NCBI GenBank assembly: GCA_947062675.1
Contig: CAMSQM010000006.1
Coordinates: 14,848 to 78,847, forward strand
Source: an uncultured Roseburia sp.
GTDB taxonomy: Bacteria > Bacillota > Clostridia > Lachnospirales > Lachnospiraceae
Length of the DNA stretch: 64,000 nt
Direction: 5' to 3'
Below the pieces are notes generated by a model. The model did not search any database and was not told where the DNA came from. It was given only the letters and a program-made list of their open reading frames with translations. The translations under genes and the position numbers were made by a program. Of the stretch, positions 12,404 through 49,916 are shown piece after piece. Position 1 is the stretch's first letter; the number at the start of each line of letters is the position of its first letter.

Positions 12404-12612
12404 GCGGGCATTGCGCCGGGCAGATACGTCTGTCTCTATATTCTAACACAAATATATGAAAATAGGAACCATAAGAAAAATGCGGACAACTGAGGTGAGC
12501 ACGGTGTATTTATACGGCGGGAATACGTGGCGCTGCAGCTGCAGGAAAAATCTGCCGGCTGAGAGGCGGGTACGGCGATTTATACGGCAGGATGAATCTG
12601 CCGGCTGAAATG

Positions 12613-45011: not shown

Positions 45012-46463
45012 ATGCAAAAGAGAGCCACAGGGCTGAGAGACGCGAAAGACAGGAAAAACAGAATCAGGAGAGGGAGAAGGGGAAGCGTAACAGGGATCCG
45101 GTGGATGCTGTCGGTCACTCTGCCGCTGCTTGCGTGCGCGGTGGCCGCGTTTATGGCCGTCCGGGTGACGGCTGCGCCTGAGAATCCGCAGGCAGAAGCT
45201 CTCGCAGAGACCATGGAGGCGGAGCGGAATCCGGAGGCAGGAGAAGCAGCCTCCGATATGGCAGCAGATGAGGGCGGACAACGGCCGGACAGCTCTGACG
45301 GCAGACGGGGGGAACCCCTGATTGTGATTGATCCGGGTCACGGAGGACCTGACGAGGGCTGTACTGCGGGAGGAATTCCGGAAAAAGAGATAAACCTGCA
45401 GATAGCGGGCAGGGTGACAAAGCGGCTGTCTGAAATGGGCTATCAGGTGATTCAGACAAGGACGGCAGACTGCTATCTGGCAAAAGAACAGAGAGTTGAG
45501 AATGCCAACCGTCTGAAGGCGGACATTTATGTCAGTATTCATCAGAACACGTTCGGGGACGAAACGGCAAACGGGATTGAGACGTGGTATGACGGGACGG
45601 ATTCCGGGAGGGACAGCCGGAGGCTCGCACAGCTGATACACAGGGAGACGCTCCTGCGCACAGGTGCGCAGGAGCGGGAATTAAGAGCGGATGCAGATTT
45701 TTGTGTGACGGGGAAGACACAGATGCCGGCCTGCCTGATCGAGACGGGATTTCTCTCGAATGCCGGGGAGCGGGGGCTTCTGGTCAGCCCGGAATATCAG
45801 GAACAGATTGCAGACGGAATCGCGGAGGGGATCCATCTGTATTTTCATCCCAGAACGATGTATCTGACTTTTGACGACGGCCCGTCGGAAAGGAGCACGG
45901 ACCAGATTCTTGATGTGCTGCGGGAGCGGAATATAAAAGCGGCCTTTTTTGTGATCGGTGAATATGTGCGGAAATATCCGGACACGGCGCGGCGGATTGT
46001 GCAGGAGGGGCATACGATCGGGATTCACTGTGACAGTCACAATTATGAGGCGCTTTATGCCGACGCGGACAGTTATCTGGAAGATTTCCGGAGAGCATAT
46101 GAAACCGTGCGGGAGGTGACAGGCGTCAGGGTGACGCTGTTCCGCTTTCCGGGCGGCAGTATCAATGCTTATAATGAAAAAATCTGCCGGGAGATTATCC
46201 GGCGGATGACGGAAAATGGTTTTGTCTATTTTGACTGGAATGCAAGCCTTGAGGACGCCGTGGCGGATGCCAGGCCGGAGCGATTTATTGAAAATGCCAG
46301 GGATACGGCGCTGGGGAGAAATACTGTCGTCCTGCTGGCGCATGACAGGGTGGAAGGAACGGCCGCCTGCCTCGAAGGGCTGATTGACGCATTTCCGGAC
46401 TACCGGATGGAACGGCTTACGCCGGAGTCGGAACCGGTGCAGTTTGTCAGACCATGGGAATAA
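45012..46463 (+). CDS. Bifunctional N-acetylmuramoyl-L-alanine amidase (Amidase_3) + polysaccharide deacetylase (NodB/CE4)
   Basis: IDPGHGG, EKEINL, SIHQN, LIETGF; LTFDDGP, HCDSH, FRFPGG, LLAHD; one N-terminal TM. Confidence 0.92.
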   Translation: MQKRATGLRDAKDRKNRIRRGRRGSVTGIRWMLSVTLPLLACAVAAFMAVRVTAAPENPQAEALAETMEAERNPEAGEAASDMAADEGGQRPDSSDGRRGEPLIVIDPGHGGPDEGCTAGGIPEKEINLQIAGRVTKRLSEMGYQVIQTRTADCYLAKEQRVENANRLKADIYVSIHQNTFGDETANGIETWYDGTDSGRDSRRLAQLIHRETLLRTGAQERELRADADFCVTGKTQMPACLIETGFLSNAGERGLLVSPEYQEQIADGIAEGIHLYFHPRTMYLTFDDGPSERSTDQILDVLRERNIKAAFFVIGEYVRKYPDTARRIVQEGHTIGIHCDSHNYEALYADADSYLEDFRRAYETVREVTGVRVTLFRFPGGSINAYNEKICREIIRRMTENGFVYFDWNASLEDAVADARPERFIENARDTALGRNTVVLLAHDRVEGTAACLEGLIDAFPDYRMERLTPESEPVQFVRPWE

Positions 46464-46487
46464 ACAGGAAGCTGCAAAAGAGAAAAA

Positions 46488-46725
46488 GTCAATATCGCCC
46501 TGATTTGTGTTAATATAATATCTGATAATCTTTCTGTATCCGGAGTATTATAGTATCTGTCAGGAGGAACACAGCCGACTGGCGGAAAGAAAAATATTTC
46601 AGAACAGGGAGGAAAAGACGATGTTGGAAAGGTTTAAAGAATTCTGCGTGGAAAACCTTGAGGCAATTGAGATAAGTGCAGCGTATTTATATGGTGAGGA
46701 TCTCTGGCGTTACAGCGACAGGTAA
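46488..46725 (+). repeat. Direct repeat copy 1 (~238 bp, diverged) of a peptide-expression cassette
   Basis: Aligns collinearly with 48893-49128 from GTCAATAT to GACAGGTAA. Confidence 0.92.
46621..46725 (+). CDS. 34-aa small protein, copy 1 (MLERFKEFCVENLEAIEISAAYLYGEDLWRYSDR)
   Basis: GGGAGG RBS, downstream terminator; 6 synonymous versus 2 conservative codon differences from copy 2. Confidence 0.8.
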   Translation: MLERFKEFCVENLEAIEISAAYLYGEDLWRYSDR

Positions 46726-46746
46726 AACGCGCGTGAACATGTAAGG

Positions 46747-46792
46747 AAAAGGTACCTCCGGTCTGGATAAGACGGGCCGGGGGTACCTTTTT
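46747..46792. terminator. Bidirectional terminator between peptide copy 1 and the Crp gene
   Basis: AAAAGGTACCTCCGGTC / GGCCGGGGGTACCTTTTT. Confidence 0.8.
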
Positions 46793-46818
46793 GCGGTCCT
46801 GGCTGTGGAATGGCCGGA

Positions 46819-47463
46819 TCAGAAGATACTGCCCTGGGATGTATCCGCGAGCCGGTAAGTGCCTTTTTCTATTTTTACAACCAGTCCGTTTTTCTCATAA
46901 TCATTTAATATGCGCTGAAGCTGTCTGGAGCTGCAGTGCAGTCTGAAAGCTGTTTTTTCGATTCCTTTCAGCTGTTTATTCTCACATTTGTATTTCATGT
47001 AGGACAGAACCCGCTCCCGCAGTGTGGAGGAGGCTGCTTCCGAAGCGCACAGCGTTTCTGTTTTCTGCGCCATCATTTTTCCCACAAAATACATGAACCG
47101 GCTGTTCTGATACAGTTCTTCTTCATGATCCTTTGTGATAAAAGCGATCGTGGTCAGCCTTTCTGTGGCCTCGGCGTATATATTGCTGTTTTTTATGTGA
47201 AACAAATCCATTTCACCGAGAACATAATTTTTACGTCCGTCCGCCAGAGAATAGGTGCTTCCGTCGTCCCGGATAAAATAAATGGATAGTTCTCCGGAGA
47301 GTACAAGCTGGAAAAAGAAATTGTCCAGCCAGGGGGCCGCAATCAGTTCGCCGGCTTCATATTCGATCAGGAACAGATCTAATGTTAAGCTTTCCAGCAG
47401 ATCTTTATGACAGCTTTCCGACATGGCATTCAGAATCCGGCTTTTGTCATAAATTTTCCTCAT
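46819..47463 (-). CDS. Crp/Fnr-family transcriptional regulator
   Basis: cNMP-binding-like LVLSGELSIY..LGEMDL; C-terminal HTH LHCSSRQLQRILN; GGAGG RBS before ATG 47463. Confidence 0.85.
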   Translation of the reverse strand: MRKIYDKSRILNAMSESCHKDLLESLTLDLFLIEYEAGELIAAPWLDNFFFQLVLSGELSIYFIRDDGSTYSLADGRKNYVLGEMDLFHIKNSNIYAEATERLTTIAFITKDHEEELYQNSRFMYFVGKMMAQKTETLCASEAASSTLRERVLSYMKYKCENKQLKGIEKTAFRLHCSSRQLQRILNDYEKNGLVVKIEKGTYRLADTSQGSIF

Positions 47464-47480
47464 ATCTACCTCCATTATAG

Positions 47481-47496
47481 CAGGACATATGTCCTG
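47481..47496. promoter_or_regulatory. Perfect 16-bp palindrome, candidate operator of the Crp/Fnr regulator
   Basis: CAGGACATATGTCCTG in the short divergent Crp-MATE intergenic region. Confidence 0.65.
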
Positions 47497-47551
47497 TTTT
47501 TCAGTTTTATATTAACGTACAATGGATGAGAATTCAAGGGAGGAAAAGAAT

Positions 47552-48889
47552 ATGTCGTCTGTATATGAAGGAAAAAATATGTCATCAACAATCATGAAGC
47601 TTGGGATTCCGGCCATGCTGGGCCAGCTTGCCACCCTGATTTATAATCTGGCGGACACTTACTTTGTGTCATTGACAAAAAGTGCGGAACAGATTGCAGC
47701 TGTCACACTCAGCGTTCCGGTTCTTCTTATTATTATGTCAATCGCGTGTGTGTCCGGCATGGGTGGCAGCAGTGTGATTGCAAGACAGCTGGGAGAGGGG
47801 AAAAGAGATGATTCGGCAAAATGCCTGAATTTCTGTATTTACGCGATGGTGATCGCCGGTGTCATCGTGCTTGTTTCGGGCCTGCTCATACTGGAGCCTG
47901 TTGCGCGGCTTATCGGGGCCGATGAAGGAAATACCGGCTTCACCTGTGATTATCTGAAATGGATATTTGCAGGGGCCCCGTTTATTATGCTGGCAAACGG
48001 TCTTCCGCATACGCTTCGGGCGGCCGGGATGATCAGGGAAAGCACAATCGGTGTTGTGCTGGGAAACGCGGTCAATATTGTTCTCGACTGGATTCTGATT
48101 GTATTTTTACATATGGGAACTGCTGGGGCAGCTCTGGCTACCTCTCTTGGCTTTCTGTGTGCAGCCGTATACTATTTTATCTGCCTGATCATTAAGGAAA
48201 AAAACGGAGACGGGCTGATTACGCTGTCGCCGCGGAAATTCAGGCCGGAAAAGCGGATGGTTGCCAGTGTTCTGAAAATCGGGATTCCGGGGGCGCTTAT
48301 TACGGTTATGATGAGTGTTTCGAATATTGTCCTGAATAATTATATCAGTATATATGGATCCGATGCGGTGGCGTCTTACGGTATTGCCTATAAAATTGAT
48401 ATGTTCCCGATTATGCTTTCGGTAGGGCTGTCGCAGGGAATCGCGCCGCTGCTGGGATTTTATTTTGGATCAAAGCAGGCAGAGAAGCTTAAAGAAGCGA
48501 TGCGGATAAGCATTTTTTATGGAATGATTTTTGGCGCGATGTTTACGATTCTTTTTATGGTGTCGGGCAGGTATTTTGCGGCAGCATTTTTGTATGAAGA
48601 AAGTCTGATTATACAGACTGCGGGTTTCCTGAGACTGCTCTGTTTTCATGCCCCGCTGCTCGGGATTATTAATATGGTAACCTCTTACTTTCAGGCGCTC
48701 GGCAGGGCGGCAGGTTCGCTTACTATTACGGTTCTGCGCAATGTTGTGCTCTTTATTCCGGGAGTGATAATACTGAACTATTTCTGGCAGCTGAACGGGG
48801 TTATTCTGACACAGCTTGTGGTTGAGATGCTTCTGACTGCAGTATGTATCATTATGTATCGGATTGCAGCGCCGGAGAAGGTGATATAA
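47552..48889 (+). CDS. MATE-family efflux transporter
   Basis: LGIPAML..LIYNLADTYFV, NIVLDWIL, GTAGAALAT; about 12 TMs; GGAGG RBS before ATG 47552. Confidence 0.93.
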   Translation: MSSVYEGKNMSSTIMKLGIPAMLGQLATLIYNLADTYFVSLTKSAEQIAAVTLSVPVLLIIMSIACVSGMGGSSVIARQLGEGKRDDSAKCLNFCIYAMVIAGVIVLVSGLLILEPVARLIGADEGNTGFTCDYLKWIFAGAPFIMLANGLPHTLRAAGMIRESTIGVVLGNAVNIVLDWILIVFLHMGTAGAALATSLGFLCAAVYYFICLIIKEKNGDGLITLSPRKFRPEKRMVASVLKIGIPGALITVMMSVSNIVLNNYISIYGSDAVASYGIAYKIDMFPIMLSVGLSQGIAPLLGFYFGSKQAEKLKEAMRISIFYGMIFGAMFTILFMVSGRYFAAAFLYEESLIIQTAGFLRLLCFHAPLLGIINMVTSYFQALGRAAGSLTITVLRNVVLFIPGVIILNYFWQLNGVILTQLVVEMLLTAVCIIMYRIAAPEKVI

Positions 48890-48892
48890 AAT

Positions 48893-49128
48893 GTCAATAT
48901 TGCCCTGATTTCTGTTAATATAATATCTGATAATTCTGCGCTGTCCGGGGTATTATAATATCTGTCAGGAGGAATGCAGCTGACAGAACTAAAAAAATAT
49001 TGCAGAAAAGGGAGGAAAAGAGAATGTTTGAAAAATTTAAGGAATTCTGCGTGGAGAACCTCGAAGCAATTGAGATAAGTGCAGCATATTTATATGGTGA
49101 GGATCTCTGGCGCTACAGCGACAGGTAA
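48893..49128 (+). repeat. Direct repeat copy 2 of the peptide-expression cassette
   Basis: Aligns with 46488-46725. Confidence 0.92.
49024..49128 (+). CDS. 34-aa small protein, copy 2 (MFEKFKEFCVENLEAIEISAAYLYGEDLWRYSDR)
   Basis: GGGAGG RBS; 32 of 34 aa identical to copy 1; terminator downstream. Confidence 0.8.
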   Translation: MFEKFKEFCVENLEAIEISAAYLYGEDLWRYSDR

Positions 49129-49176
49129 ACCGTGAGGATGACGGAACCTTCTGCTGTATCTGAAAATGAGACAGAC

Positions 49177-49223
49177 AAAAAAGGAGACCGGTTTCTGTTC
49201 GACAGGAACCGGTCTTCCTTTTT
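49177..49223. terminator. Bidirectional terminator between peptide copy 2 and the Cys/His-repeat gene
   Basis: AAAAAAGGAGACCGGTTTCTGT-TCG-ACAGGAACCGGTCTTCCTTTTT. Confidence 0.85.
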
Positions 49224-49229
49224 GCGCTG

Positions 49230-49916
49230 TTATGCTTTTTTAATGGTGGAATGCCCGTAATAGGTCTTTCCCTTGTGAGTATGTTTTTTGGTCTTTGTGC
49301 AGTTTGCCACGGTACACTGGCTGTAAGTCTTACTGCCGGTGGCATGGCCGTAATAATACTTGCCGCTGTGTTTGTGTTTGCCGGTTTTTTTGCAGCCGTC
49401 CACGGTACACTGGCTGTAGGTTACGTAGGTGGAATGCCCGTAATAGTAGCTGCCGCTGTGTTTGTGCTTTCCATTCTTTTTGCAGCCGTATACAGTGCAC
49501 GCGCTGTAGGAATGGCCGTTATAGCAGGTTCCGCCGTGATAGTGCTCGCCTGTCGCGGTACAGCCTGCGACGCTGCACGGGCCATGGTACGTATTGGAGT
49601 GGCCGTTGTAGCAGTTGCCGCCGTGGTAGTGTTCGCCTGTTGCGGTACAGCCTGCGACGCTGCAGGGACCGTAGTAGGTCGTATTGGAATGACCGTTGTA
49701 GCAGGTTCCGCCGTGGTAATGCTGTCCGTTTGCGGTACAGCCTGCGACGCTGCACGGGCCGTAGTACGTTGTGCCGCCGCCGGTTCCCGTCGCCGGAACG
49801 CCGCAGCCGCCGCCGTGATGACCGCCGCCGTGTCCGTGTGCCATTGCAACCGCAGGCTCCTGCAGTACGATCAGAACTGCGGCGAGAACCAGAAGTGCTT
49901 TTCTGAGTGTTTTCAT
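49230..49916 (-). CDS. Secreted Cys/His-rich repeat protein (six C-x4-C-x5-H-x-H-x3-[CYT]-Y-x-GH repeats)
   Basis: GGAGG RBS, Sec signal ending AMA, tandem repeats visible in both DNA and protein. Confidence 0.85.
   Translation of the reverse strand: MKTLRKALLVLAAVLIVLQEPAVAMAHGHGGGHHGGGCGVPATGTGGGTTYYGPCSVAGCTANGQHYHGGTCYNGHSNTTYYGPCSVAGCTATGEHYHGGNCYNGHSNTYHGPCSVAGCTATGEHYHGGTCYNGHSYSACTVYGCKKNGKHKHSGSYYYGHSTYVTYSQCTVDGCKKTGKHKHSGKYYYGHATGSKTYSQCTVANCTKTKKHTHKGKTYYGHSTIKKA

Follow-up and report, generated by a model that had tools for sequence, protein, structure and literature searches.

A microprotein cassette repeated in a Roseburia genome and its proposed cupin-AraC regulator

The repeat pair and a third copy

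The window, a 64,000-nt stretch of a contig from an uncultured Roseburia sp. (CAMSQM010000006.1, positions 14,848 to 78,847 of the forward strand), contains two direct repeats, A and B, each consisting of a conserved upstream block, a strong ribosome-binding site (RBS), an open reading frame (ORF) of 34 codons and a terminator of its own. A repeat search of the window returned them as the pairs 46483-46595/48888-49000 (81% identical) and 46590-46729/48993-49132 (90% identical), and whole-genome BLAST aligned copy B with copy A at 86% identity over 238 nt (E = 7e-76). According to a pairwise alignment, the similarity extends from 5 nt before GTCAATAT to 4 nt past the stop codon; the terminators lie beyond this end and are unrelated to each other. 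An earlier, sequence-only reading of the window had described the two repeats with upstream block, RBS and 34-codon ORF, and these proved to be real, as did the unrelated strong terminators and the GGGAGG RBS 8 nt before the start codon. The features of the two cassettes, including the score of a position weight matrix (PWM) for the operator, are as follows:

46488-46525, + strand: putative operator of cassette A, two 17-bp half-sites with the repeats GTCAATAT (46488-46495) and GTTAATAT (46509-46516), 21 bp apart; PWM 64 bits
46522-46554, + strand: predicted promoter of cassette A, weak -35 CTGATA (46522-46527) and -10 TATTAT/TATAGT (46546-46554); consensus scan
46556-46586, + strand: predicted 5'-terminal mRNA stem-loop of cassette A, TCTGTCAG...CCGACTGG; -14.7 kcal/mol
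46607-46612, + strand: RBS of copy A, GGGAGG, 8 nt before ATG
46621-46725, + strand: microprotein gene copy A, 34 aa, MLERFKEFCVENLEAIEISAAYLYGEDLWRYSDR; translation, ORF comparison, codon-position statistics
46746-46797, + strand: terminator of cassette A, 20-bp stem and T run; RNAfold -37.9 kcal/mol for 46726-46800
48893-48930, + strand: putative operator of cassette B, GTCAATAT (48893-48900) and GTTAATAT (48914-48921), 21 bp apart; PWM 60 bits
48927-48959, + strand: predicted promoter of cassette B, -35 CTGATA and -10 TATTAT/TATAAT; consensus scan
48961-48987, + strand: predicted 5'-terminal stem-loop of cassette B, CTGTCAG...CTGACAG; -12.5 kcal/mol
49010-49015, + strand: RBS of copy B, GGGAGG
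49024-49128, + strand: microprotein gene copy B, 34 aa, MFEKFKEFCVENLEAIEISAAYLYGEDLWRYSDR (starting MFEKFKEF); translation, ORF comparison
49176-49229, + strand: terminator of cassette B, 23-nt arms, 87% complementary, and T run; repeat search, folding

The ORFs of A and B differ at nine nucleotides, eight of which occupy codon position 3, resulting in six synonymous codons and two conservative replacements (L2F and R4K), the same counts as obtained in the sequence-only reading. Among 30 Roseburia homologs, the mean pairwise difference per site was 0.36, 0.31 and 0.59 for codon positions 1, 2 and 3, and the untranslated parts of the cassettes diverged fast and carried indels. These substitution patterns mark the ORF as a genuine small gene that codes for protein and is kept under purifying selection, as had been proposed. 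Nearly every homolog was preceded by an AGGAGG or GGAGG RBS 7-9 nt before the ATG.

Only two copies had been noted before; both are real, but the genome carries a third. Copy C (G000:C33:24902-25003, minus strand) encodes MIKKLKEFYVENSEMIAVGMAYLNGGDCFLYTDR, has the same upstream block as A and B, and lies between a Gfo/Idh/MocA-type oxidoreductase gene and tig. Its operator (L008 6100-6116) abuts the oxidoreductase gene, whose last four codons (VNID) and stop codon are operator sequence; the ortholog in genome G367 ends two residues earlier with a different sequence (...YPQEQ, then stop). The cassette has evidently landed on the end of the oxidoreductase gene, and because the operator forms the gene end here, unlike in G367, the portable unit comprises operator, promoter and ORF. 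An empty-site comparison for copy C yielded no cassette ends, since synteny is not kept in relatives. That the repeats might be the tip of a mobile element, a miniature inverted-repeat transposable element or a fragment of a larger gene, which would have undone the earlier interpretation, is contradicted by the presence of three copies only, the lack of terminal inverted repeats, the stand-alone homologs of 32-80 aa and the housekeeping neighbours.

The microprotein family

With a profile built from seven peptides, the gene was detected in 34 of 151 Roseburia species genomes, and a profile of 44 sequences, searched against 1.84 billion representative proteins, gave 136 clusters at E ≤ 1e-3, nearly all of them 32-80 aa long (mostly 32-36 or ∼55-65 aa) and devoid of informative fusions. 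A single-sequence search of 300 other genera of Lachnospiraceae found nothing, so the profile and the regulator (see below) were needed as routes to distant homologs; its weak matches within the genus were true homologs sharing upstream DNA. Using a 42-aa extended frame as query in a protein homolog search, only the window's own cluster was returned. Neither the window's peptides nor the long and hydrophobic variants had a match in Pfam, NCBIfam, PADLOC or PHROGs, and a profile search of the PDB with the family was equally negative, which bears out the earlier statement that no family was recognised for the peptide.

Conserved columns span the whole peptide (M1, K4, K6, Y/F8, F/Y9, E11, N12, I13, D/E14, I16, A17, G19, A21, G25, D27, P30 and Y31). 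AlphaFold2, supplied with the family alignment, predicted one long amphipathic helix from residue 2 to 24, kinked at N12 and followed by a flexible aromatic tail, with a predicted local distance difference test score of 94 in the first block of ten residues and 91 in the second. One face of the helix carries a small-xxx-small pattern (A17/A21/G25). The tail reads DYxPY in the window peptides and DLWRY in its place elsewhere. With a net charge of -4, a mean hydrophobicity of ∼0.1 and a hydrophobic stretch of only ∼11 residues, the window peptides have no transmembrane span.

Other members depart from this form. In a Hungatella-like lineage, the C-terminal half of a 39-aa variant (MVKNINRFWNEQSRNIGAGAFAVAMTLLMITMRYVGYFS) is transmembrane-like, with a hydrophobic stretch of 17-19 residues, and the variants of 55-65 aa share a conserved MSTIAVN N-terminus. 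Tandem or multiple copies of the peptide occur in several species; at three loci of other Lachnospiraceae (L076, L057 and L089), two to three tandem paralogs lie behind one operator, or behind repeated operators, with a single adjoining regulator. Because of these tandem paralogs, expansion of the copy number has evidently happened several times independently.

At other Roseburia loci (L020, L021, L031, L037, L038 and L040), the peptide stop codon is closely followed by a partly conserved motif, GGTGA/GGAGG ... CATGA ... AGGAAAA, with which a further K/R-rich ORF of only 15-21 codons begins and extends into the terminator stem; copies A and C do not have it. Translational coupling is one possible explanation, and chance is another. 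Among the representative proteins, an unrelated 211-aa protein (P0043) contains seven tandem repeats of SIAAYKKQYYEENRE, which mimic the KKYFxEN...IAA core of the peptide, followed by an HTH-like (helix-turn-helix) C-terminus; it is probably a case of helical-motif convergence. A fourth peptide-like match in the window (12468-12542, + strand, E = 0.078, ...VSTVYLYGGNTWRCS...) lacks operator, RBS and start codon and was taken as chance.

Operator, promoter and the cupin-AraC regulator

The conserved upstream block, 85 nt that begin shortly before GTCAATAT and reach as far as the hairpin, aligned without gaps in 29 Roseburia loci. In its consensus, AAAAAGTCAATATCGCCCnAnTTTTTGcTAATATnaTATCT-N22-GTATtATAATACcTGTCAG, the elements GTCAATAT, TAATA and ATCT never vary, and the 20 nt that separate the blocks are close to random. 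The second block likewise reads GTCAAnA (GTCAATATCGACTTAAAAnAGGTCAAnA) in distant genera, which is why the operator is taken to consist of two direct repeats with a 21-bp period. The two TATA(A/G)TATCTG boxes 35 bp apart listed in the sequence-only reading are present (46514-46524 and 46549-46559), and so is its TATC-T-GATA dyad (46519-46527), but of the latter only TATCT, which sits in the second half-site, is kept in relatives. The dyad is thus not supported as the control element; the conserved elements are the two direct repeats.

The second half-site overlaps the weak -35 hexamer CTGATA, and the -10 block (GTATtATAATAC) is kept across species whereas the -35 region varies. Transcription of cassette A would start near 46559-46562; taking 46560 as the start, the half-sites would lie between about -73 and -36. 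As read from the sequences, many species have a good divergent promoter of the sigma-70 type immediately past the first repeat, apparently serving the regulator. When a PWM of the first 47 nt was run over this genome, only the three peptide cassettes scored (64, 60 and 50 bits) and nothing else exceeded 14 bits, so that no further operator sites indicative of a larger regulon were found. The earlier proposal of co-regulated, separately transcribed copies agrees with the arrangement, which is that of separate units having one regulatory element in common, as far as sequence can tell. Inspected by eye, the upstream block did not fit promoters recognized by SigD, SigE/G/K, sigma-54 or TcdR-type factors, and a LytTR-type readout was dropped once the divergent AraC partner had appeared.

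Directly after the -10 box, the sequence folds into a hairpin with z < -2 compared with shuffled sequences in 22 of 29 loci, versus none of 31 control segments inside the ORF. The arms vary together (GTCAG/CTGAC, GTCAAAGG/CCTTTGAT, GTCAGGAGG/CTTCTGAT and ATGTCA/TGACAT), compensatory changes that were judged by comparing the arms and that favour a stem in the RNA, with which the mRNA would begin. In Firmicutes, such 5' stems protect transcripts against 5'-dependent decay.

Of the 31 Roseburia loci examined, 23 have, directly upstream of the peptide gene and divergent from it, a gene for a protein of ∼288 aa with a cupin domain and an AraC-type HTH. In this genome, the regulator (G000:C27:21371-22231; L047 4318-5231; HTH_18, 2e-21; HTH_AraC, 1.4e-14; Cupin_2, 5.8e-07; AraC_binding, 1.6e-06) is unlinked to the cassettes; it is found between a gene for an S8 peptidase (subtilase), ∼90 nt ahead, and spoIIR, with neither a peptide gene nor an operator beside it. 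It is 64-81% identical to its orthologs of other Roseburia, and in the closest sampled relative (G426; 81% identical) it is likewise unlinked from the peptide gene.

A scan with the regulator alignment, for which one genome per species was used, gave 516 loci, of which the best 80 were analysed; these come from Roseburia, Hungatella, Hespellia, Mediterraneibacter, Faecalimonas, Sellimonas, Blautia, Petralouisia and others. At most of these best 80, a small ORF with an RBS is divergent from the regulator gene; some of these ORFs match the peptide profile, and others, more divergent, were found behind the same operator. Clustering of all neighbours at the 80 loci revealed no conserved gene besides the small ORF: the only recurrent neighbour related to ATP-binding cassette (ABC) proteins, unannotated, occurred at 14 of them, and no peptidase recurred. 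Presence of the two genes is correlated as well. Among the 29 sampled Roseburia genomes in which a regulator ortholog was detected (E ≤ 1e-120, identity ≥ 64%), 28 have the peptide, including this genome and G426, where the two are unlinked, compared with 34 of 151 overall. Most peptide-positive genomes without such an ortholog either contain the divergent long subtype with a regulator only 33-38% identical or are incomplete.

Among relatives that are 35-100% identical, the invariant residues of the cupin domain are H33, H35, E39, H73, H88, C86 and C108, i.e. an HxHxxxE motif, two further histidines and two cysteines. This set looks like a metal site and is a hint that the ligand may be metal- or redox-dependent. 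The best match in curated libraries was the NCBIfam model AryK (E = 3.9e-42 over its residues 7-265, the N-terminal part), but with 144 bits against a family cut-off of 850, the regulator was not considered a member of that family.

The proposed circuit and its alternatives

The combination of a double HTH with a cupin sensor and of half-sites 21 bp apart that overlap a weak -35 (29 loci and distant genera) is that of an activator-dependent promoter of the AraC/XylS type. From the position of the operator, the co-occurrence of the two genes and the direct-repeat geometry, we infer that the regulator binds the operator, which is its proposed site. We therefore consider it probable, though by no means certain, that each repeat is a complete, independently transcribed microprotein cassette and that the microprotein is the dedicated output of one cupin-AraC regulator. 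A dimer of the regulator would bind the half-sites GTCAATAT and GTTAATAT...TATCT, overlapping the poor -35, in the manner of AraC at araI1-I2, and, upon sensing of a ligand by its cupin domain, would recruit RNA polymerase to the TATAAT box. The predicted product is an mRNA of ∼240 nt with a protective 5' stem-loop, a strong RBS and an intrinsic terminator. The amphipathic-helix peptide encoded by it would most likely stay inside the cell and dock onto a partner protein; by analogy with Aar, MgrB, AcrZ, SgrT and SR1P, this partner is most likely to be either the regulator itself, which would give feedback, or a membrane protein. With three dispersed copies, the signal of the regulator would be read out at three loci.

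The closest parallel to the regulatory part is provided by AraC at the E. coli araBAD promoter and, more generally, by AraC/XylS activators with divergently transcribed targets, which also combine an N-terminal cupin (AraC_binding) with a C-terminal double HTH. As with AraC at araI1-araI2, the putative operator here consists of two half-sites that are direct repeats with a 21-bp period, the second of which runs up to a weak -35. Unlike araBAD, the only conserved target here is one ORF of 32-65 residues and not a catabolic operon; unlike AraC, the cupin carries the invariant HxHxxxE...H set plus two invariant cysteines, and the target in this species is unlinked and triplicated. AryK and Rsp of Staphylococcus aureus are AraC-family regulators, of which AryK is the best curated match of the regulator, but AryK is 759 aa long because of a large additional C-terminal portion. 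The paper on AryK and Rsp (PMC3922988) mentions no small peptide as a target.

With regard to the output, the module resembles SgrR-SgrS/SgrT of enterobacteria and the CcpN-controlled SR1/SR1P of Bacillus subtilis, in which a dedicated transcription factor governs one short terminated transcript that encodes a small protein. SgrT, a protein of ∼40 residues, acts on PtsG. The SR1-encoded SR1P, also of ∼40 residues, acts on GapA (PMC10730256). Unlike SgrS and SR1, the Roseburia transcript has no sequence relationship to either, is linked to a different regulator family, and the evidence points to the protein, with no sign of a base-pairing RNA function. In E. coli, AcrZ is the 49-aa partner of AcrB, activated by MarA, SoxS and Rob, and MgrB is a PhoP-activated feedback peptide. 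Like these, the microprotein is a small helical peptide with a face of small residues; the genes of AcrZ and MgrB are direct targets of a stress-sensing activator (of the AraC family in the case of AcrZ), their products bind a larger protein, and the Hungatella-lineage variant looks membrane-spanning as they are. Unlike AcrZ and MgrB, with which there is no homology, the Roseburia peptides have no full transmembrane segment, and their regulator apparently has no other target. The ANR family (e.g. Aar of enteroaggregative E. coli) comprises small helical proteins of ∼60-70 aa in Gram-negative bacteria whose genes are activated by an AraC-family regulator; here, too, a small helical protein may feed back on an AraC-family regulator, a feedback that is hypothetical, but the microprotein is unrelated to ANR in sequence.

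Literature text searches, which included small-protein papers, retrieved no description of the module; this does not prove that it is unpublished, but regulator and microprotein look like an undescribed module. It is family-wide in the Lachnospiraceae, yet none of the curated libraries searched contains it. Among the commensals that dominate the human gut are Roseburia, Mediterraneibacter, Blautia and their relatives, whose small proteins are almost unstudied. The module is compact, with one sensor-regulator, one near-invariant operator of 38 bp and one microprotein, and would represent a directly testable regulon of size one. It is also a candidate inducible promoter/regulator pair for genetic tools in Lachnospiraceae, and a route to the signal sensed by the cupin domain. 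Its triplication and unlinking in this species show a small gene spreading together with its operator.

Three observations weigh against the proposed circuit. Genes for pheromones, bacteriocins or toxins are more typically present in tandem or multiple copies than are those for modulators acting inside the cell; the membrane-spanning-like 39-aa variant of the Hungatella-like lineage may indicate that the family is membrane-associated rather than cytosolic; and one regulator-positive genome (G430) lacks the peptide at the threshold used. A further reading, which we regard as doubtful, would have microprotein and cupin-AraC regulator form a closed two-component circuit, the peptide being the partner of its regulator, either as an intracellular co-activator or anti-activator or as an exported signal that is sensed. 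If so, the output gene could be copied around the genome as a portable operator-promoter-ORF unit of ∼250 bp, and the exported-signal case would constitute a peptide-responsive AraC-family system conserved across Lachnospiraceae.

Signalling can also be envisaged in a more specific form, in which the peptide is a pro-peptide that is exported, possibly trimmed, and sensed by the regulator directly or after re-import, giving an autoinducing two-gene circuit. The self-contained module of regulator and small ORF without any other conserved neighbour, the restriction of the operator to peptide genes in this genome, the multiple paralogs of some species and the exchange of DYxPY for DLWRY in the aromatic tail would all fit. 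We nevertheless judge it unlikely: neither a signal peptide, a double-glycine leader nor an adjoining exporter or protease is present, and the metal-site-like motif of the cupin domain suggests a small-molecule ligand. A processed pheromone is further argued against because conservation extends over the whole length, including the tail (G25, D27, P30 and Y31), and does not follow the pattern of a conserved leader with a variable core. No protein of the AraC family is known to us as a peptide receptor.

Established classes of signalling peptides were considered separately and rejected. An AgrD-type cyclic autoinducing peptide would be inconsistent with the lack of a conserved cysteine or serine in the C-terminal half, of an NCBIfam AgrD match and of an AgrB-like neighbour. 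For a bacteriocin or pheromone with a double-glycine leader, column statistics revealed no GG, GA or GS site, and no peptidase was recurrent at the 80 loci. With respect to RRNPP or Rgg-SHP signalling, the adjacent regulator combines a cupin with an AraC HTH and has no tetratricopeptide repeats, and the peptide has no signal-like sequence.

A membrane-active or toxic peptide of the type I toxin or holin kind, its copies silent until induced, would account for the small size, the multiple dispersed copies, the small-xxx-small motif and the hydrophobic stretch of the Hungatella-lineage homologs. This explanation, the type I part of which the sequence-only reading had raised, is highly improbable, as the window peptides are acidic and not hydrophobic, let alone membrane-spanning, and the similarity of A and B ends 4 nt past the stop codon, leaving no conserved antisense or 3' overlap region. 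The conserved 5' block is promoter and operator, control would be exerted by a protein regulator with a conserved operator, and Rfam offered no antitoxin RNA. A search of 46000-49600 against Rfam with E values of up to 10 returned chance-level matches only (E ≥ 1.5, far below the gathering scores).

This lack of an Rfam match also speaks against the transcript of ∼240 nt being mainly a regulatory RNA, i.e. a dual-function small RNA like SgrS or SR1 with a secondary ORF, a possibility that we rate lower still. The unit is indeed short and terminated, its 5' end is structured, and a partly conserved motif follows the stop codon at several Roseburia loci; small RNAs divergently paired with a dedicated regulator are known, namely SgrR-SgrS, OxyR-OxyS and GcvA-GcvB. 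However, conservation is at the amino acid level, and because third codon positions are free, an RNA-only function is argued against; in addition, the untranslated parts diverge quickly and carry indels, and the RBS is strong and invariant.

The genes enclosed by the two repeats, given as context only, were identified by Pfam and NCBIfam:

46819-47475, - strand: Crp/Fnr-like regulator
47522-48889, + strand: MATE transporter

Lowest in our estimate is a function of the copies together with this pair, the peptide either modulating the transporter or being exported as cargo. The gene order (amidase, copy A, Crp-like gene, MATE gene, copy B, His/Cys-rich protein gene) recurs in at least six further assemblies of the species, which are independent, copy B begins 5 nt past the MATE stop codon, and a MATE-like protein is encoded near the regulator at four of the 80 loci; but each cassette has its own promoter and terminator, copy C lies elsewhere, between the oxidoreductase gene and tig, in ∼30 other Roseburia species the gene adjoins the cupin-AraC regulator and not Crp or MATE genes, next to which it was found in no other species examined, and the Crp-like protein has no close ortholog but only 26-28% identical relatives in 30 other genomes. 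The bracketing of the pair, to which a functional meaning had been attached earlier, is therefore read as incidental locus history.

The terminator of cassette A probably serves the convergent Crp-like gene as well, and that of cassette B is common to the cassette and the convergent gene of the His/Cys-rich protein. The divergent Crp-like and MATE genes are separated by 46 bp, within which a near-perfect palindrome (AGCAGGACATATGTCCTGTT, 47479-47498), also flagged as terminator-like, is the likely operator of the Crp/Fnr-like regulator. The His/Cys-rich protein (49230-49916, - strand; 228 aa) matches neither Pfam nor NCBIfam; it has a hydrophobic N-terminus resembling a signal peptide by eye and six tandem repeats of ∼29-30 aa rich in His, Cys, Gly and Tyr (YYGPCSVAGCTAxGxHYHGGxCYNGHS; DNA period 78-93 nt), and thus looks like a secreted metal-binding repeat protein.

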